A stretch of DNA of 61,053 nt, the filler included, from Globobulimina sp. (taxonomy: Eukaryota), in the NCBI GenBank assembly GCA_003354225.1. It is 19 parts of 19 records of this genome, joined end to end, with 100 filler letters (N's around TTAATTAATTAA, not from the genome) between each part and the next. Parts side by side here need not be neighbours in the genome. Positions count along the whole stretch, not along the records: positions 38,638 to 41,755 come from PIVH01003683.1; 18 more parts are not named here. One strand, given 5' to 3'. Both the position numbers and the translations under genes were made by a program. Within the stretch, counting starts at the first letter, position 1, and every line of letters begins with the position of its first letter. The notes under the pieces were generated by a model, which saw only the letters and a program-made list of their open reading frames with translations, did no database searches and was not told where the DNA came from. Positions 35,978 through 61,053 of the stretch are shown piece after piece.

Positions 35978-37271
35978 TCACATTGAATTAAACCTCAATT
36001 TCCGTTTATTAATTTTCTCATTATCCTCCACATTAAATTCCGCCTTCTCATAATATCCATTCTTATTATAATTATTCCTAAAGCCACCTCGGCCTCTTCC
36101 TTTACCAAAACCTCCTCTTCCTCTCCCACCTCTTCCTCGTCCTCGTCCTCTTCCTCTGCGATTATTCTTTTTATACGCTCGAAACTGTTGAAATTTCTTC
36201 TTATTCCTCACCTGCCGATTATTATTTTTCTTATTCCCAAATCTCTCCTCTCTCTGCAACGCCTTATCCCCTTCGGTCAAAGTGCCAAATCTCAACTTCC
36301 TTTCCATTAATTTCGTAGCACCTCCCTCGGCTCCACCGCCTACAGCAATTTCCTCAACTTTCTCCCCATCCGTACCCTCATTAAATCGCTTCATTCGCTC
36401 GCTTTTCTTCGCGTTCTCCTCTGCTTTTTTGATAGAAACCGGCAACAAATGCTGTGTACCAAAGCGTTTCGCGCGGTTTATTTTATCTGCATAAATAACG
36501 CCACTTTCCTCCTCCTTTGGAAAATAAGTAATTATCCTTGCGCTCAATGGCTGAAATGCATCAATAAACACTACTAAACTGTCAATGTGAAGCCTTTCGG
36601 CAACGCTGTGCCGTACTTCTTGGCGCGTTGTAGGATTTTATTGCGTTCCGCGGTGACATCGATGCGTTGTTTTTTCGGTGCGGGATCCGTTGCGTTGTTG
36701 GTGGTGCTCTCGAAGCGCCGTTTACGTGATTCCACTTTGGCCGTTTCAGTGTCTGTGTGGGTACCAAATCGATTGCGGCGATCTTCGATTTTTGAGTGAG
36801 TGTTTAAGGCAAAATCGGAGGTGATTTGGGTGGGAGTTATCGTCGGCTGTTTGGGTGTTGGTGTGTTGTCTGTTGGTAATATAATATGTTTCTCCTCGTC
36901 TTCGTCTTCTTTGTTTAGTAAATCGTCGATATTCACAGTTTCGGTGTGGGATAAATTGTCGTCTTTGTTATTTAATCGATTGTATTCATCCTATAATTTA
37001 AAAGTAAAATGATTTTTGTTTTGTTTATAATATGAATGGATAAGCTACGAACATTGATATATTCTTCGAAATCTGCAAAATCAGAATGTTGATTTTGGGT
37101 GGAAATGGAAGTAGAATCGTTATCGTTTGTGGTTTCGTCGATGGTTTGTGTCTGAATGGCGGCTTTTAAGCGAGATATTAATTCTGTTTTTCTACCATTC
37201 ACTTTTAATGAACGGGACTTGAGTTCTTTTTTGAGTTCGACGACAGTCATTGATTCTAAATCGACATCCAT
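35978..37271 (-). CDS. SAP-domain RNA-binding protein (SARNP/Tho1-like) with RGG tail, three exons
   Basis: MTVVELKKELKSRSLKVNGRKTELISRL (SAP); repeated R..RFG motifs; RGRGRGG box. Confidence 0.8.
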
Positions 37272-37321
37272 GATATTTTAATTTATATTTTGTGGATCAA
37301 TGTGAAGTTTCAAGTTTCGAC

Positions 37322-38151: not shown

Positions 38152-38230
38152 GTCACTGTGAATTGCTCTTTGTACTTTTATAAAAGGATCCTATGCAGTC
38201 ACCACTGGAAATAAAAACTTACCTTAAACC

Positions 38231-38537
38231 ATGTCACACTTACAGTTTGTGATAATAATATGTATTTTATGCACTGCTATCATGTCGTTGGAATTTGCAG
38301 TATGTCCCGACGTATTAAATGAAGAGGCACTCCCATTACACATTGAATTTGATGGTGAAGCAATAATATCAGGCACAACAATCAATAAACACAAAGCAAG
38401 TCTCGAACCAAATATAGAATGGCCTCTATCAAACCACAACCATGATTATTATACAATATTAATGGTAGATCCTGATGCACCATCTCATACAAATCCAATT
38501 GCAGCAGAATGGCTTCATTGGATGATTAAAAATATAC
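38231..38537 (+). CDS. Secreted PEBP/RKIP-family protein (3' partial)
   Basis: Signal peptide; [18 protein letters not shown]. Confidence 0.92.
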
Positions 38538-38637: not shown

Positions 38638-41390
38638 ATGATATGCTGCGGTATGACATCTTGACCGGCAGCTATCATCACTGAATGGTTTGTAATGTAT
38701 GCAATGGAGCCCACAAACGGTGCTCTGTTGCAACTCAATACCAATAAATTTGCGCCGCCACCTTTCCCTTTGCGCAGTATCTTAATCCCAATCATCCACA
38801 ACCTTCGATAATTGAATACATTCGAAGGTAGACGCGGTTCAATGTAATATAGCAACACTCGCGATTTTAACAGCAATGTATTAAACACATTAAACACCGC
38901 TGCTCTTTTTCGAATGGTTGCTTCGTGGATAAATTGCAAATCCATACGCAAATTATTTGCTTTCCGATCAGTAGATTTACGGTCAAACTCCGCAGGCGAT
39001 TCGAACAATACATACCGAGTGATATCAACTTTATATTTGCGATAAATGGGCTGCTGTCCCAATATAAAGACCGCCACAGTAAAAGCTGAACGTCGCAGCG
39101 CATCGCGTATACCACGCAAATCATTATAGTCCATAGCAATGATTTTGGGCTGATTCAAAGGCGGCGTTCGAAAGCCTTGATTGCTATTAAATTGATGGAA
39201 AAACTTCTGCACTTCGCGAGCAAATTGGTCACCATTTCCGCCGTTGCTGTCATAACAAATGACCCAATTAATACCATTCCTGGCTGGAGCTCTCTGATTA
39301 TTGTGTTTAGCCACTTTAGCGCCATATATCGAGCGTAAATTGTACCAAAAATCATCCACTCCCTTCCAGACCCGACCAGTAAAGCTCTCCGCGGCCTGTT
39401 TCCCGATTTTATGATTGCTTTTAAAGCAAATAAAAGGCGCATCAATCAAGAATCCGCGCACTTGGATAGGTCGGTCGTCTGTGCTGAATATGGAGTTCCT
39501 TGTCCTTGCTTTTTGAGCCAATATCTTATTGATTTCAAGCGATTTGCTGATTATAAGTTGCAAACTGGGATGCGATCGTTTTCGTAATTCTTGCTTCGTA
39601 TTTTGATTATGCTCATCTATGGACACGATAACATATAGTAATTGCGGTAAAAAATGGAGTGTTCTGACGACTTTTTTGTCGCGACCTCTGCCGGTATACA
39701 CATGGTGAATTACCAGGCATTGTTCTTGCTGTTCGAGTAAGGTCACCTTTCGATTTGTCCTCGAATCTTTTTTGTCAGTGTAATACTGCCGGTATGATAT
39801 TTGACAATTATTTTTTGGAAATGTGCTGTCTAAATTTAGCGATTTGTCCAATCCGTCGATTTCAACAATTTGATCTGAATAACTTGTGATTTCTCGCTTT
39901 CCTTTGATCCATTTGTCCACTGCCTCGATACCATTGGCGCGGATTAAATCGTACAATGAATGTTTGGTTATTAACTTACGACTAATAAGTAAAGTATTCG
40001 ATGTTTCTGTTTCTAAATATCATACACAGGACAAATAGAAATACCTTAATTGATTTTTAATTAAAAATGAGGTTTGGATGGGTAAAATGGAGGATTTATA
40101 GCCTTTCAATAGTCGCAAATCTGGAAATTGAAGGTCTGTGCCGTTTTGTGTCCATACTTCCATAGCATTCAAATCTTGCAATGAATAAAATGCATCTTCC
40201 CGGTAATGCAACTGTGCATAGTTTGCACTGCGAAATCGGCCCCGGTTCAATATGCTCATTCCCATTTGTTGGAAGTATATGCCGCAGGATTTATAAATGT
40301 TGAGGAAGCTGGATTTGCCACACTTAGCATTCGCATTCTTGCTATTATTATTATTGCTGCATTGCAAGGAAACATCCGTAGTTTGTTGCCGTTCCAAGGT
40401 AACTTTATAAATATCGTTCTCGACCGTGAATACAGGCTCTTTTGGCGGGTCTTTGTTGAATGAAAAGATATGCAAATTATCAAATGTATGCGGATTAAAT
40501 GCGCGCAAATGTCGTCTGAATTTCATATAAATATCCCGTCTCTCATCCGCATCCATATCCATTTCGTGTAATTTCTCTTCTTTTTCTTCTGTGCTTTTTC
40601 CCTGAATATTAAAGGTGTATTGGTGCACCGTCAATGATTTATCATCGATGCGTATGCTATTTGTAGTCACTGCGACACGGTTTGGGAATGTCAATATCAT
40701 TTTGTTATTAGTGGCAGGGAGGTCATTTAGCCATTTATCACTATTTCGTTCGATTTTAACTTGTGCGGATAATGGGATATCCCCAATAAATACGCTTTCA
40801 TTCCCCTGCTTTCCAGTTACTACTTTTTTAGCTTTGCCCGGCTTAAATCGAGCTTCGTAGTACTCGCAATTATTGATTTTATCAATCCATTTCCGCAGTG
40901 GTTGCGCACCGCGCTTGTCCAATGATAATTGTTTGATGGATGCCAATAATTTCGGGTTTAATGCAGCTAAAAAATCATATTTTCCAGTCGGGGCTCGAGA
41001 TCCACCGCCTCTGCCACCACCGCGGTTTGTTCTGTGTCCACGATTTGATCTATAACCGCCTCTATTATTCCCTCTGTAACCGCCACCGCCTCGAGGACGG
41101 CCTCTGTTGTTATTGCCTCTGTAATTGCCGCCTCTGTTATTTCGATCATAAGGTTTTCGGTCATATCTGCGGTAATCACTACGATATGTACTATCATGTC
41201 GATCGCCACGATCTCTTTCTCTTTCTCTGTTGTATGGTTCATATCGATGGCCAGATGTTGGCCGATTCGAACTATGATGACCTTTGTATTTTTCTGGTTG
41301 ATTGGTATTGTTTTTGTTTTTTGCACGGTCTGGCGGGGCTACGCGATCATCTTTGTTGTGATGAGGCGGTGATGATGGATGTCGTTTCAT
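38638..41390 (-). CDS. Divergent Piwi/Argonaute-family protein, two exons (3' partial)
   Basis: RG/RGG N-tail; N domain (VAVTTN..VHQY); L1 (LLKGYKSSI..LS|RKLI across intron 39982-40044); PAZ (LDSTF..ISYRQYY..HFLPQL); MID (YRKYK..LQFI..LLK); PIWI start (WMIGIKI). Confidence 0.8.
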
Positions 41391-42083
41391 GTATTTTAGT
41401 GGTTATTGCCCATTGTCTTTTCAGTTTTTAATTATTAAGCAAGTTTTCACAGTAAGCTGTTTATTTAGCAAGGAGTTTAAAAACTGCTAAATCAAGGGAA
41501 AATGCTTTGAAACTTCAAAAACGTACATTTCTGATGTCCCTAAAGCTGGAAAACCACTAAAATTGGAAAAATGTCACATCAACCACCGTTACTGCACAGA
41601 CCAAATAAAAGACAAAGATTAGGATTCAATGAAATGATGGCGAGGTAACAGAAGAAAACAAAAACATTTTTCAAAGGTTAGGTATAAATAAAATGATTGG
41701 ATACAATGAATTAGCATTTTGGAATTGCTTAAATATAATTCATCGTGCAATTAAANNNNNNNNNNNNNNNNNNNNNNNNNNNNNNNNNNNNNNNNNNNNT
41801 TAATTAATTAANNNNNNNNNNNNNNNNNNNNNNNNNNNNNNNNNNNNNNNNNNNNTCTATCGTTTTGGATGATATTTGCCGTTCGTTAGCATTTACGAGC
41901 AAGAACTACCATTTAATGAATAAATAACACTGTTTGCAAGAAGTCATTGTGTTGTCATGGTACTTTTATTCTTATTCAGCTCAGCATACCCAGTAGCTTA
42001 CCCACCATACCAGCTCGAGAAAACTACAACATTTTCCAACCTTGCATGATTATCCTCTCACATTGTGCACTGATTCAGTTATG

Positions 42084-42147: not shown

Positions 42148-44973
42148 ATGGCGGAGGCAAAAGACAACTCTCACACTGATAATCACGAAACAATAAAGAA
42201 TGTGGAGAATGAGCTTAAGGACCTGAGGCGACAGTTACATAAGGTATGCTGGTATCCATTGCCTAAAGAAGAAAAGCCAATATTTTAGATTACTGTATAG
42301 ATTGAAGAACAAATCCGAGGAAAAAGCGCAGAATTATCAACAGTGTTGGCACGATCAGTATCGATCGCTGATATTGATGAAATTTTAGATATGTCCCATG
42401 ATACCAGCGATGCATCGATAACATCCTCGTTATCAATGGACGCAATGGAACGAAAAGATAGCACAGATATCGATAATGAGAGTACAGATACAATGTCTCC
42501 AACATCTAAAACAATCAAATCGTCCAAGAAAAAAAAGAAAAAAAAAGGTGCTGATAAAAAACGAAAAGCAACTGCATTGTGGAAAGAATTAGAAAAACAA
42601 ATTAAGGACGGAAATATGGAGTATGTTAAGAAATTAATACAATTAAATAAAGTAAAAATAAGTGACAATACGCAATGTAATGGAAGGACCATTTTGATGA
42701 TGGCAGCAGAACACGGCCAATATGATATTTGTTGCATGGTAATTAATTTAGGCGCAGATGTTACAATGACTACAAAATACGACTCAACTCGCGATGCTTC
42801 CTACTTTGCCAACAAATCACGCCATTATCATATCGAACGACTATTATTAATATCATCATTTGGCGGCGAATCCAGCGCAAAAATTAATGAAATCATTGAG
42901 AAATTAAAAAAACAGCAAGCTCTCAACCAAGATTTTATTCGCGTTGTTATTGAAGAAAAATCAGATGAATCTGCTGGTGATCGCGAGGTATGGATTAAGC
43001 AAATCACTCAATATTTATGTGGTTTGATACAGAAAAAAATGGTATTCAGTGACGATATGCTCAGTTTGTGTTGGAATTACACAGTTTATAATAATAAAGA
43101 TAAGGCTTTAAGCAGCTATTTATGGACAACGATAATGCAAAGTTGTAAGGAAGTCATTCAAAGTAAAGATTCGAACAATTGGTATTGGTTTAAACAATAT
43201 ATGTTAAAATCAACCATATGGTTGCAACCACTCCCTTTATATGCTACCTTCGAAGGAATAAATGGTATTAATGATGGTAACGATAATAATCAATTATCTT
43301 TGAATGATCTATTAATTCAACAATTATTTGACATTACAAACACTCAGTCAATGCAAAACAGCACCAAATTAAAAGCAATGGAGAAGAAATTTAATACAGA
43401 TTGGAAAGCTTTGATTAATTTTGATATTCAAACACGTTATGGTTTGCAGCCGAGACAGGATGATATTTTTAATGGTTTGGTTGCAAAATATAGTAAACAA
43501 GAATTGTCACAAAATATAAACCCGTCGACAACGTTTAATGCTCTTAAACATTATGATATTCATCAATATTTACCCAAACTAATATTAGTGTGTCATATGA
43601 TTGACGATGAATTTCAACAATGTATTATGAATATATTTGATATAAACTCTGCCACAAATACCAATGTTTCTAGTTTTTATAGCAAGGATGTGGAAGATTC
43701 AGATGATGAGAAAAACTTAATTCGATATCGACGGGGTCCACTTAAACAAATATCGAGATGTAAAGTTAAGGCTGAAAATGACTATCAAACAATGAAATTT
43801 CCCACTTCTGCGCATTTATTAGATGTGGTGCGGTGTACTTTGATATTTCAAGATGTCGATGGTTTGTTAAAATCGTTGCGAGAATTTGAGGGTAAAGTGA
43901 ATAAGAACAAATGTGGTGTTATTCAAGAAATAGTTCGATGTAAGAATGGTTTCGTAGATTGGAATGGCGACGCACCAAATTATGCAGATATAAAATTAAA
44001 TGTATTAATACAAACTGATAAATATTATGCAGTGATTGGTGAGATACAATTTTTATTGAAGGATATGAGCATTTTTAAATTGAGAGCTCATAAGTTATAC
44101 AGTGTCAGTCGTTTAGATGAGGAATATTTGTCATTATTAAAAATAAAAGAAATAATGATGGATCATTCAAAATGTTTATTAAATGCATCCTTTTTTAACG
44201 ATTCAAAACAGATTTCAAATGTAATGGTTGTACATCAAAAAGATATTAAATTCATTCAAGAAAATATTGATTTACAAAGAATTTGTCAAACGAAAGGATT
44301 TAAATTGTTAAGAATGTTAAAACAATATATGGATAGCGATGAATTGATAATTAAATTAAAAGCATGCGGTGCATTTCAAATAGTTTGCAGCAGAGGTTAT
44401 ATTGATATGATTCAATATATTTATTTACAAATATTGACATCAAAAACAAACAAATATGATGATATGTTACGGAATGGTTTAGCTGAAGTAATAAATGAAG
44501 GGCATTTTGAAATATTGACATGGATGTTTACTGAGAATAAGAAACATAAAGATTTTAAGTTTCTGAAATTATGGAATCAATTTGAGACTGCGGATAAGTA
44601 TACGTTTTTTAGGAGAGTTTGTGAATTGGGCAAAACAAATTGTGCTAAATTATTATTAAGACATTTTGGTGCTTTGTTTGATCCAAATGATCAAAGTAAG
44701 GGTGGATACTGTGCATTGATGAAGGCTGTTCGTAAAAAACGAATTGAAACCGTAAAATGGTTGGCTACCTTAAAATATATTGATTTATTTTCTGAAAATG
44801 CCAAGAAAGGAAGAATTTGTTTGTTCGAAGCTATTGATGTCGGTTGTTTTCAAATTGCTGATATATTATTATCTCAATACAAAAAACAAGGTAGAGATCC
44901 AAAAGAAATGTTAATGTATAAAGCATCATTTGGGCATACAATACAGATTTTTGTTAAGACGGCGGGCTGGAAA
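42148..44973 (+). CDS. Ankyrin-repeat protein with central RelA/SpoT-like nucleotidyl/pyrophospho-transferase domain (3' partial)
   Basis: Intron 42244-42300; ankyrins GRTILMMAAEHGQ..GAD and GYCALMKAV; central GPLKQISRCKVK, LLDVVRCT, NYADIK, GEIQF, AHKLY. Confidence 0.75.
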
Positions 44974-58231: not shown

Positions 58232-60958
58232 TTATTTATTATTATTAGCAGTAGTGATTTGTGCAGCGAGTTGAAATTCTTTTTGCATGTTATTCCAAGT
58301 GACGTCAGTCACTCTTCTCCCGATATTATCAGTATTATCCAATGGATCCAATACAATTAAAATATTATTATGGTTATTTTGCAAATGACATAGATTTTTA
58401 TTCAAAAAACCATTGATTTTATTTTTCCGTATATTATGCGTAATGGATATTGCATGTATTTCTGGTTTAAACTCCTTATGAAAATACGTAAAAAACCCAC
58501 TGAACAATTCACCAATGTTATGTTTATTTTTTTGTCCAAAACTTACAAATTTCTCAGGTTTAACCCAATCTGGTTCATAATCTTTGTTCTTGTTGATTTC
58601 ATTCATATTTATTTGTAAAATGGGTAAAATCGGAGACTGTAAATGTTGTAAATAGTGTATAATCATTAAGGTGAAACCAAATGAATTTAAATCGCCTCTA
58701 TGCGTATTATTCAATTTCCTGGTTTTGACCCAATGTTTTATGGCCAATACCAAAGGTTTCACCCTCCAATCAATGGACACATATTTCTTAATCAATTTTG
58801 TTTTTATCACTGACTGCGTTAAACACACCGAAATATCCGATTGTAATCCATTATTTTCATCCGTTAACTTAACAATTGGCACCGTCGCATGTTCCAAGAA
58901 TATCACTTTAAAATGCGGCACTTTTACAATTTCCTCGTAAATCGGTTTCAATATTCTTTGAATGCGATGTTGTTTCACTTCGACGGTCAAATCCACGCTC
59001 TCATTATGTTTAAAATAATTATCAAATGATAATATATTATCGGCAGACAAATGTATAGAAATATCCAAATCTGATTCAATGTGATCCAATTTGGTCGCCA
59101 TGGAGCCAAATATTTCATATCTCGCATTGTGGCCATGTACTTTGATTAAAATATCTTTCAATTGCTTCAATAAACGATACCGTTGGAATATAATCTCATC
59201 CGTTGGCTGTTTAGTCAATGCTAAGCATAATACGCTTTTCATCAAACCATTATATTTCTTCTTTTTGCGAATGATTTTGTTTATTTCGTCTCGCAGCGAT
59301 AAGCCTCGATGGAAAAAGAAATCGCTGTCTGAGATATGAGAACAAGTCGAATATATCGGATAAAAACGAATATTTAATCGATAGGAGCCATCGCAGATGT
59401 TTTTATCTTGTAATATCTCATCAGAAACTATAGAAACACTGCCATCTAAGCCCAACTCGCTGTTATTTATTACGTTTGCTACGTCCACGCCAATCATCAA
59501 ACGGCTGTAATTATAGCCATCGCGCACTTCGTCATCACTCGCCGTCGCCGCAGAGGAAGATAACACATACAAAATATCAAAGTGTCGCTTGCCTAAAATG
59601 TTGACGATATTTGCTATGGTTTCTTTGACGTAGTCGCGATATGCGCCATTTATGTCATCTGCATAGCGCTTATCATCCACAAAATACTTGCAATTCAATA
59701 CGCGAATATGAAAGATATATTTGTTGGATAAATATTTATTTTTGTTTTTATTTTTAATGTTAACGTTTTTCTCATCGTTGACGCTTTCTTTCTTTTCGTC
59801 CGCCATATTCAGATTCATATTGACATTCTCGTCATGATGATTGATATTATAATTATTGTACTGATGATTGCTGATTCGATCTATAAATACCTGCAATAAC
59901 TGGACCACCAAATGGTGCGTCAATTTGTTATCAGCAACATCGGCCAGAATGGATTTGAATAACTGAATGCATTCTGTCTTTTGCTTACATTTACAACATT
60001 CCTCGCTCAAATCGCGCACAATGTCGACAATCATACGCAAATACGACGATGTATCCGGATCCTTAGCATTGTTATGGTTGTCTTTGTCATTCGCATTCTC
60101 GTTATTTGGCCTCGACACACAAAGGGAAGTAATCGCAGCGGAGTCTAATAACAATTTGCGTAAACAAATGATAATCGCATTGAAAGTGTGCTGATCATTG
60201 TTATTTAACTCATTTTTGTGTTGTTGCAATTTCGGTTTAATTCGAATAATTTGCTGTTTTAACCAAGCAACGATATCAGATATAAACACTAATTGTTTGT
60301 TGATATCGTTTAACTCATCGCCGATGTTTATAGTCCGCACAATGGGTATCCCGCTGCGGTCATTTATGGCTAAAAAACTGTCGACGCGCAAAGCTTGATC
60401 GCCGTCACAAATATCATCATCAAAGTCCATGTCTTTTTTTTTATTCTGATTTTTGTCCATTAAGTCTTCGTTCTCATCAATAGTGAAAATGGAGTTGTTT
60501 TCATCAAAATCGGCGTCTTCTTCTTTCTGTTCCAGTAATAAGTCGTCAATGTCGTCAATAACATTGTCCTCAGTACGAGTGTGAGTGTATGTGTATGTGT
60601 ACGTGTTCAATGCGGAGGAATTGGCAGAGGAGATATTGAAGAATTTTATGCTGTTATCGTCGCTCCAAAATGCCATCCATGTCCGGTATATTCCCTGTTG
60701 GATTTTATTCAAATGAGTGCGCTGTGCGTCGTTTAGTGAGGAGAGCGTTGGCGTGATTTGGAAGATTTCAATCAACGACATGGCGATTTGCATGCGTTTG
60801 ACGATGGACTCGATGTGGTAGAATCGAGTGTATATCTTTTGGATCAGTGCGAAATCATAATAGGCGAAGTTTAAAACGATGACTTGGCGATGTTCGTCAG
60901 TCGTAATCCATTTTAGTAATTCGATGAATCGTTTTGCAAAACGGACGACTGTTCGCAT
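58232..60958 (-). CDS. Non-canonical poly(A)/terminal uridylyl transferase (Cid1/TUT/GLD2-like) with long N-extension
   Basis: FGS..SDLDI, ATVPIVK, DIS, LNSFGFTLMIIHYLQ, GELFSGFFTYF, DPLDNTDNIGR. Confidence 0.92.
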   Translation of the reverse strand: MRTVVRFAKRFIELLKWITTDEHRQVIVLNFAYYDFALIQKIYTRFYHIESIVKRMQIAMSLIEIFQITPTLSSLNDAQRTHLNKIQQGIYRTWMAFWSDDNSIKFFNISSANSSALNTYTYTYTHTRTEDNVIDDIDDLLLEQKEEDADFDENNSIFTIDENEDLMDKNQNKKKDMDFDDDICDGDQALRVDSFLAINDRSGIPIVRTINIGDELNDINKQLVFISDIVAWLKQQIIRIKPKLQQHKNELNNNDQHTFNAIIICLRKLLLDSAAITSLCVSRPNNENANDKDNHNNAKDPDTSSYLRMIVDIVRDLSEECCKCKQKTECIQLFKSILADVADNKLTHHLVVQLLQVFIDRISNHQYNNYNINHHDENVNMNLNMADEKKESVNDEKNVNIKNKNKNKYLSNKYIFHIRVLNCKYFVDDKRYADDINGAYRDYVKETIANIVNILGKRHFDILYVLSSSAATASDDEVRDGYNYSRLMIGVDVANVINNSELGLDGSVSIVSDEILQDKNICDGSYRLNIRFYPIYSTCSHISDSDFFFHRGLSLRDEINKIIRKKKKYNGLMKSVLCLALTKQPTDEIIFQRYRLLKQLKDILIKVHGHNARYEIFGSMATKLDHIESDLDISIHLSADNILSFDNYFKHNESVDLTVEVKQHRIQRILKPIYEEIVKVPHFKVIFLEHATVPIVKLTDENNGLQSDISVCLTQSVIKTKLIKKYVSIDWRVKPLVLAIKHWVKTRKLNNTHRGDLNSFGFTLMIIHYLQHLQSPILPILQINMNEINKNKDYEPDWVKPEKFVSFGQKNKHNIGELFSGFFTYFHKEFKPEIHAISITHNIRKNKINGFLNKNLCHLQNNHNNILIVLDPLDNTDNIGRRVTDVTWNNMQKEFQLAAQITTANNNK

Positions 60959-61053
60959 GTCATTCTTCCAGAAGTTTTGATAGGCGTCTTATTGCAAAAT
61001 GAGAGCATTGAGAGCTAGGAGGAAATATTTGCATATATTAAAGTGTACAGTAC

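Follow-up and report, generated by a model that had tools for sequence, protein, structure and literature searches.

Whether a highly diverged Argonaute gene of Globobulimina sp. (GenBank assembly GCA_003354225.1) still encodes a slicer, or a protein that would have to act on its targets without cutting them, is the question raised by the contig at positions 38638-41755 of the analyzed DNA. The window, that is the whole stretch of 61,053 bases, consists of 19 contigs of approximately 3.1 kb each, linked by N44-TTAATTAATTAA-N44, and because the contigs are merely joined by these linkers, "genes" running across a linker are not genomic neighbors. Taken together, the comparisons described below point to a constrained, non-slicing Argonaute of the PIWI clade, the locus encoding residues 1-896 of a foraminiferal protein whose full length is estimated at 1,160.

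The gene lies on the minus strand and starts with an ATG at 41390, with an in-frame stop at 41403-41405, three codons upstream. Exon 1 (40045-41390, minus strand), defined by this ATG, its open reading frame and the upstream in-frame stop, comprises 448 codons plus 2 nt and encodes a disordered basic/RGG tail, the N domain and L1; its product aligns with the N-terminal approximately 300 residues of the homologues. It is followed by a 63 nt intron (39982-40044, minus strand) of GT..AG type and phase 2 that carries an in-frame TGA, and by exon 2 (38638-39981, minus strand; 1 nt, 447 codons and 2 nt), which encodes PAZ, L2, MID and the first ~70 PIWI residues before it ends at the contig end. The open coding sequence thus amounts to 896 codons, 448 and 447 from exons 1 and 2 and a Ser codon split between them, and the gene is truncated at 38638 because the contig ends there. 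Three studies provided four public runs whose contigs were aligned to contig 38638-41755; contigs of all four skipped exactly 39982-40044, and the spliced junction is colinear with the intron-less homologues, with neither gap nor insertion, which confirms the prediction of the earlier note that splicing out this intron yields one protein. Searching by tblastn with four homologues as queries found no second Argonaute piece on the other 18 window contigs. A 3,512-nt contig of run X1 extends 785 nt beyond 38641, roughly the length of the missing 261 codons, and hand translation of the 30 readable letters past 38641 showed that the frame continues into a peptide resembling the homologues at this place. 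Scanning metagenomes for the gene retrieved a single locus, L001, which was considered as the missing 3′ end and rejected, as it is a separate relative with 55-65% identity and introns.

To what extent the product can be recognized as an Argonaute depended on the sequences searched. The exon-2 product, hereafter P0002, on which the residue numbers below (K400, D441, Q349 and others) are counted, matched the Pfam PAZ profile (PF02170) with an E value of 1.8e-5 and 25.1 bits, under the 28.8-bit cut-off, and had no Piwi match, while nothing meaningful was found in Pfam for the exon-1 product. PF02170, together with phmmer alignment to the PAZ of Piwi-like protein 1, placed the PAZ domain at 39594-39923 (minus strand; P0002 residues 20-129); in the PDB, phmmer returned four marginal matches to P0002, all of them only to this PAZ domain (E 0.07-0.1). 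A word-indexed search retrieved four full-length relatives (P0003-P0006) of 1000-1077 aa with 43-50% identity and 100% query coverage, and these matched both profiles: the Piwi profile (PF02171) at E≤0.01 in all four, three of them above the 28.9-bit cut-off, and PAZ at E≤0.01 in three, with 29.0-44.8 bits and past the cut-off. That the gene would be missed by routine annotation, as had been suggested beforehand, is plausible, given that the pieces within the window yielded only the sub-threshold PAZ match and none to Piwi. A six-sequence profile run against 1.84 billion representatives matched just 169 proteins at E≤1e-3, and the family therefore stands far from mainstream Argonautes.

Structure prediction filled in the remaining domains. 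An AlphaFold2 model of the homologue P0004, based on a 133-row alignment from which 21 proteins shorter than 120 aa were excluded, reached a predicted local distance difference test (pLDDT) value of 91.3 and a predicted template modelling (pTM) score of 0.90. Its best Foldseek match was Siwi (E 6.5e-38), followed by MILI, HILI and hAgo2, and VIA-align gave Z values of 29.1 to SIWI (711 of 753 residues) and 28.7 to hAgo2, the matched region spanning model residues 62-984. For P0002 itself (model m80d03331d7e7, pLDDT 91.2), the 10 best Foldseek matches were all PIWI-clade proteins, with MILI at the top (E 4.5e-15). The portion encoded in the window covers the bilobed N-L1-PAZ-L2-MID-PIWI architecture up to the first ~70 PIWI residues. 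The models thus predict that the gene encodes an Argonaute with the four-domain fold, and the initial identification as an Argonaute is borne out by fold matches over whole Argonaute chains.

Sequence ranking places the family nearer to PIWI than to AGO. Searching the PDB with a clade profile of nine rows, the first 17 distinct sequences were all of the PIWI clade (E 7.8e-18 to 3.8e-8), the best AGO-clade match being budding-yeast Argonaute at E 1.3e-4, with hAgo2 at ~3e-4; PIWI PAZ structures were matched with E values down to 1.9e-11. The named distant matches were likewise all PIWI-type, namely primate PIWIL3, a Daphnia Siwi-like protein, Macrostomum PIWI-like 3 and a Paramecium protein. 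The VIA Z values, which are tied within 1, do not tell PIWI and AGO apart by structure, and the PIWI call therefore rests on sequence. In a rapid maximum-likelihood tree, built on 42 profile matches of at least 600 aa and the window exon 2 (43 rows) and rooted on the PIWIL3-like rows, the window protein grouped with P0003-P0006 with a support of 100 in the Shimodaira-Hasegawa-like approximate likelihood ratio test (SH-aLRT), and this group then joined a Bolivina/Nonionella trio (99) and P0019 and P0107 (100) to form the wider slicer-dead clade, all within a 30-row divergent family on a long stem of 1.15 substitutions per site (support 100). These results suggest a family of the PIWI clade, closer to PIWI than to AGO. 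An Elphidium margaritaceum transcript, Bolivina argentea and Nonionella stella are the close relatives that carry a name, and since all three are foraminifera, they also support the proposal that the clade is lineage-specific.

To evaluate the slicer tetrad, whose canonical residues are D-E-D-H, sequences were aligned in two independent ways, by MAFFT L-INS-i (43 rows) and by hhalign of the clade against nine canonical PIWI-type matches. Position 1, the Asp of the canonical G-x-D-x-x-H strand, is occupied by Lys400 (AAG, 38781-38783, minus strand) in the motif WMIGIKI, which lies inside the predicted strand E396-402 of the P0002 model. Position 2, the canonical Glu or "glutamate finger", is Asp441 (GAT, 38658-38660, minus strand). 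At position 3, the canonical Asp of Y-R-D-G, the clade has Ala, Ser or Cys, and the same was read from the HMMER alignment to MIWI/MILI, while position 4, the canonical His, is Asp or Glu in the clade. That the first Asp is replaced by Lys, as claimed from the nucleotide sequence at the outset, holds in both alignments, neither of which places an intact Asp at position 1, and the loss reaches further than had been claimed, with Asp at position 2 in the window protein and positions 3 and 4 lost in all clade relatives.

The same columns were counted in the 133-row alignment over the 47 clade rows with at least 30% identity to P0004, using for each column the rows that cover it; the alignment is automatic, and a few fragments may be misplaced in these counts. 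Asp was absent at position 1 (0/18; K in 13, and E, T, R, A and H in one each) and at position 3 (0/22; S in 10, A, C, T and L in two each, and H, N, G and P in one each), position 2 was Asp in 17 of 20 rows (N in 2, E in 1), and His was absent at position 4 (0/20; E in 7, D in 6, Q in 3, others in the rest). Among the other 85 rows, Asp was found at position 1 in 38/58 and at position 3 in 52/71. L001 reads K, D and C at the first three positions. Within the family, positions 1-3 are still D, E/D and D in the sister subclades, and the loss is therefore specific to the branch of the window protein. In this branch, the tetrad D-E-D-H has become K-D-(A/S/C)-(D/E).

Two further observations concern the tetrad columns outside this branch. 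In the mostly metagenomic sister subclade P0035-P0061 and P0129, a Lys stands at the canonical His column and a His is the next residue (A-K-H-Y-A-E), and Lys occupies this column in 27 of the 56 covering non-clade rows; this may represent an active D-E-D-K/H variant. At least three PIWI-type paralogues, very unlike one another, occur in Nonionella stella (P0009, P0096 and P0136, from EukProt): one falls in the slicer-dead clade and reads K-D-H-Q in the 133-row alignment, a second has Asp at tetrad positions 1, 3 and 4, and a third, nearer to the canonical proteins, has no Asp at 1 and 3 and no His at 4.

A decaying pseudogene, or an assembly error in the AAG codon, would be another explanation, and the incompleteness of the gene in the window and its weak Pfam scores could be taken in that sense. 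However, the truncation is that of the contig end, and all 896 codons are open. The aligned run contigs differ from the window at 152 sites, reflecting strains or species, and of the 40 best-supported differences 34 are synonymous and 34 lie at third codon positions. None of these 40 (of 152) falls in the AAG codon at 38781-38783, and the neighboring change at 38787 is synonymous. Coding-sequence indels in related strains preserve the frame: besides those of 3 nt and 6 nt there are an insertion of 6 nt and a cluster that adds up to 6 nt, and most of them fall in the N-terminal tail. Lys is also the residue at position 1 in L001 and in 13 among 18 independent clade sequences, the contigs of all four runs are spliced, and transcripts of such genes are known from Elphidium, Bolivina and Nonionella. 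We therefore regard decay or assembly error as hardly credible: the gene is intact to the contig end and under purifying selection.

The run contigs also bear on expression. They reach up to 41396-41430, stopping a few bases before the ATG, where one loose end continues as an Illumina adapter, and 41446-41755 is almost uncovered. Judging from the spliced form and from where this cover stops, the Argonaute gene is probably transcribed. Upstream of the gene, runs X6 and X7 contribute contigs of low depth at 41551-41644 whose far sides have long loose ends, and this cover may represent an exon of a neighboring transcript.

Both metal-binding Asp residues are gone and a Lys occupies what was the metal site, so that the protein is predicted to be unable to cut target RNA by the two-metal mechanism. 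An endonuclease that works through a rearranged active site, for example one using Asp441 and the acidic residue at position 4, would make use of the acidic residues that do remain at positions 2 (D) and 4 (D/E). Such an enzyme would have to manage with both metal-ligand Asp of the RNase H core strands replaced, with a cationic Lys at position 1, and with a position 3 where A, S, C, T, H and N all occur, the variability expected of a relaxed ex-catalytic site. Single D-to-A changes at the catalytic Asp positions abolish slicing in the Argonautes that have been studied. We consider retained endonuclease activity very improbable.

Instead, we think it likely that the protein loads a small RNA, pairs with targets that stay uncut, and silences them through recruited partners, with the RGG tail serving in docking or RNA binding. 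The protein retains the four-domain fold, the PAZ domain and conserved basic and polar residues of the MID pocket, at least as predicted, with which a small guide RNA could still be loaded. Complementary transcripts would then be bound and left uncut, the Lys in the former metal site could help to hold the target backbone, and other factors would be recruited. The likeliest outcome would be nuclear or chromatin-level silencing of abundant retroelements, or genome reorganization.

The RG/RGG-rich part of the N-terminal tail at 41007-41210 (minus strand; residues 61-128) contains 10 RG dipeptides, of which 5 are RGG, as had been noticed before any database search and was verified here by counting. 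A tail of this type was found in both of the close relatives whose N-terminus reaches that far, the others starting downstream; in the Elphidium transcript P0155, it carries 11 RG (8 RGG, 5 GRG) after an RD/RS-rich stretch. RGG boxes bind RNA and are substrates of protein arginine methyltransferases (PRMTs), and Tudor proteins dock onto RG motifs at the N-terminus of PIWI proteins. The tail may be a docking, RNA-binding or methylation module.

How the guide would be held is a question for the MID domain, which we placed at 38856-39275 (minus strand; approximately P0002 residues 236-375, with approximate boundaries) from model secondary structure and alignments. In the nine canonical PIWI-type matches, Y576, K580, Q592 and K618 (PIWIL3 numbering) are invariant, and in the family the conserved residues K317, R322, Q349 and K372 stand in place of this Y-K-Q-K pocket. 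The pocket Q (Q349) and the last K (K372) are conserved across the foraminiferal family, and opposite the canonical first pocket K, hhalign sets R322 and MAFFT T321; three registers of the MID pocket helix are possible from the alignments. Tyr313 and Tyr316 of the window protein are not conserved in the relatives. The earlier note had judged Y, K, Q and K to be roughly retained: this stands for Q and the last K, depends on the aligner for the first K, which becomes R or T, and fails for the Tyr.

The whole family also departs from canonical proteins in a low-confidence S/T-P-rich insertion of 20-35 residues that follows the pocket helix. In P0003-P0006 it lies between this helix and the Q strand and, at ~610-642 of P0004, holds a conserved A-L-S-T-P-N-x-S-P, which looks like proline-directed phosphorylation sites, and it is much shorter in the window protein than in P0003-P0006. 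At the other end of the chain, residue 984 of the 1006 in the P0004 model matches the last residues of Siwi and hAgo2, and the residues beyond it end in a conserved D-V-x-M-K/Q motif in the subclade of the window protein.

Several points weigh against a guide-loaded, non-slicing protein. The Tyr that stacks on the guide 5′ base is not conserved in the pocket, its place being opposite K317 (MAFFT) or an aliphatic V318 (hhalign). A C-terminal extension of ~22 or more residues past the Siwi and hAgo2 chain ends is family-wide; the C-terminal carboxylate helps to form the 5′-phosphate site in canonical Argonautes, and with such an extension the recognition of the guide 5′ end may therefore differ. 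Binding of the guide 5′ end may thus be altered or lost. The window ends before the last ~260 codons, so that tetrad positions 3 and 4 were read from relatives with 43-65% identity. Runs X1 and X2 carry no recorded type, and for X6 and X7 RNA is a guess. The tree holds family-profile matches only, without AGO or WAGO rows, and the PIWI-clade placement therefore rests on similarity ranking.

If guide binding had been lost along with slicing, the protein would be an RNA-independent scaffold or a general RNA-binding protein, acting for instance through its RGG box, and the Argonaute fold would have been kept merely as a structural platform. The unconserved pocket Tyr, the C-terminal extension, which leaves no free carboxylate at the usual place, and the 20-35-residue low-confidence insertion beside the pocket helix would all suit such a protein. 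On the other hand, the pocket Q and the last K are kept across ~30 family rows, as are an invariant K and, one helical turn further on, an R/K, and PAZ is the best-conserved link to canonical PIWI proteins. Moreover, D-E-D persists in sister subclades that show the same changes in the pocket, and this is sensible only if they bind guides. We accordingly hold the loss of guide binding to be unlikely, and continue to favor silencing by a guide-loaded protein that leaves its targets uncut.

If the protein holds a real surprise, it most probably lies in the altered 5′ pocket and the C-terminal extension. With no stacking Tyr, an extra invariant Lys and an extension at the canonical chain end, a bolder proposal is that this divergent foraminiferal PIWI family has a rebuilt guide 5′-end pocket that binds an unusual guide, and that the slicer-dead RGG branch is its nuclear arm. 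This is a long shot. If true, the rebuilt pocket could accept a 5′-triphosphate or an otherwise modified 5′ end, and the nuclear arm would direct chromatin marking or DNA elimination during nuclear reorganization (Zerfall), paralleling the scan-RNA system of ciliates.

Animal PIWI proteins of solved structure are among the closest known systems. Those examined (Siwi 5guh/9nhc, MILI 9ij0, HILI 7yfx, MIWI 9s0z, EfPiwi 7kx7 and Drosophila Piwi 6kr6) share the four-domain fold, with Z values of 26.5-29.1 over 674-721 aligned residues, and animal PIWIs are also the best PDB sequence matches of the clade (E down to 7.8e-18). Nevertheless, only 13-16% identity was found after structural alignment, and animal PIWIs keep DEDH (DQGH columns), whereas the clade of the window protein has lost it. 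Drosophila Piwi and mouse MIWI2 reportedly silence without needing slicing. Symmetric dimethylarginine (sDMA) sites of animal PIWIs are GRG/ARG motifs, whereas the tail of the window protein is an RGG box.

Nearer relatives retain Asp residues that this branch has lost. The sister foraminifer-type PIWI subclades (P0035-P0061 and P0129; Nonionella P0094/P0096) share the family stem, the pocket changes and the C-terminal extension, but differ in having Asp at tetrad positions 1 and 3, Glu/Asp at position 2, and at position 4 either K followed by H, or D. Going by these residues, they may still slice.

The same logic of guide-bound Argonautes that lack catalytic residues and recruit other factors is found in Caenorhabditis elegans WAGO and in human AGO1/AGO4, the latter being non-slicing proteins that act by recruiting factors. 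WAGO, which we liken by description, and AGO1/4 belong to different clades, and AGO-clade PDB entries match the clade profile only at E 1e-4 or worse. WAGOs are cited as non-catalytic Argonautes in an article on Paramecium (PMC3105430). According to that article, Paramecium Ptiwi07 is the most divergent Piwi, has IDQ for DDH, is called non-catalytic and is the orthologue of Tetrahymena Twi8, and Twi8p is macronuclear and binds 23-24-nt small RNAs (PMC3105430). Ptiwi07/Twi8p resembles the window protein in being a protist PIWI-clade protein, the most divergent paralogue of its set, and mutated in the slicer triad. The ciliate proteins belong to Alveolata and the window protein to Rhizaria, and they differ from the window protein in that its clade has the replacements K / A,S,C / D,E, and in that it has an RGG tail, a non-conserved pocket Tyr and a C-terminal extension. 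The Paramecium match P0117 falls outside the foraminiferal family in the tree, and the likeness to Ptiwi07 is meant as one of features.

For Rhizaria, published accounts report up-regulation of PIWI in Allogromia during Zerfall (preprint 10.64898/2026.10.21.760831), and AGO-clade proteins with intact DDH in Plasmodiophora, from a 2026 functional study of RNA interference (RNAi; PMC13547706). In the literature searched, foraminiferal PIWI is represented by one passing mention and rhizarian RNAi by one functional study; neither the family nor its dead tetrad was found described in that literature, which had subscription journals and supplements outside its scope.

Beyond the Argonaute gene, 12 open reading frames of the window were scanned with Pfam. 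The frame at 58235-60988 (minus strand, 918 aa), on a contig separate from that of the Argonaute, has an MTPAP-like poly(A) polymerase/terminal nucleotidyltransferase palm (PF22600, E 1.6e-17); enzymes of the terminal nucleotidyltransferase type tail small RNAs in other organisms. The 891-aa frame at 42301-44973 (plus strand), still open at the contig end, carries ankyrin repeats towards each of its ends and, at its center, several hundred residues with no Pfam match at E≤1e-5. On the contig next to that of the Argonaute in the window, translated frames at 35978-37277 (minus strand) resemble exons whose product would have a long RGRG/RGG tail at its C-terminus and an N-terminal motif that we take to be SAP-like, and a frame at 38228-38537 (plus strand), likewise open at the contig end, shows a D-P-D-A-P...H-W signature, presumably that of phosphatidylethanolamine-binding proteins.

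What is new here is a lineage-specific, slicer-dead branch of PIWI, whereas non-slicing Argonautes are already known as a theme, and the finding thus extends a known pattern and breaks none. The small-RNA pathways of Foraminifera and Rhizaria are almost unstudied, and the locus and its relatives show that foraminifera have several PIWI-type paralogues, one conserved branch of which is apparently without slicing, in a family so divergent that profile annotation barely sees its members. They offer an entry point to transposon control and nuclear reorganization in these retroelement-rich, multinucleate protists.

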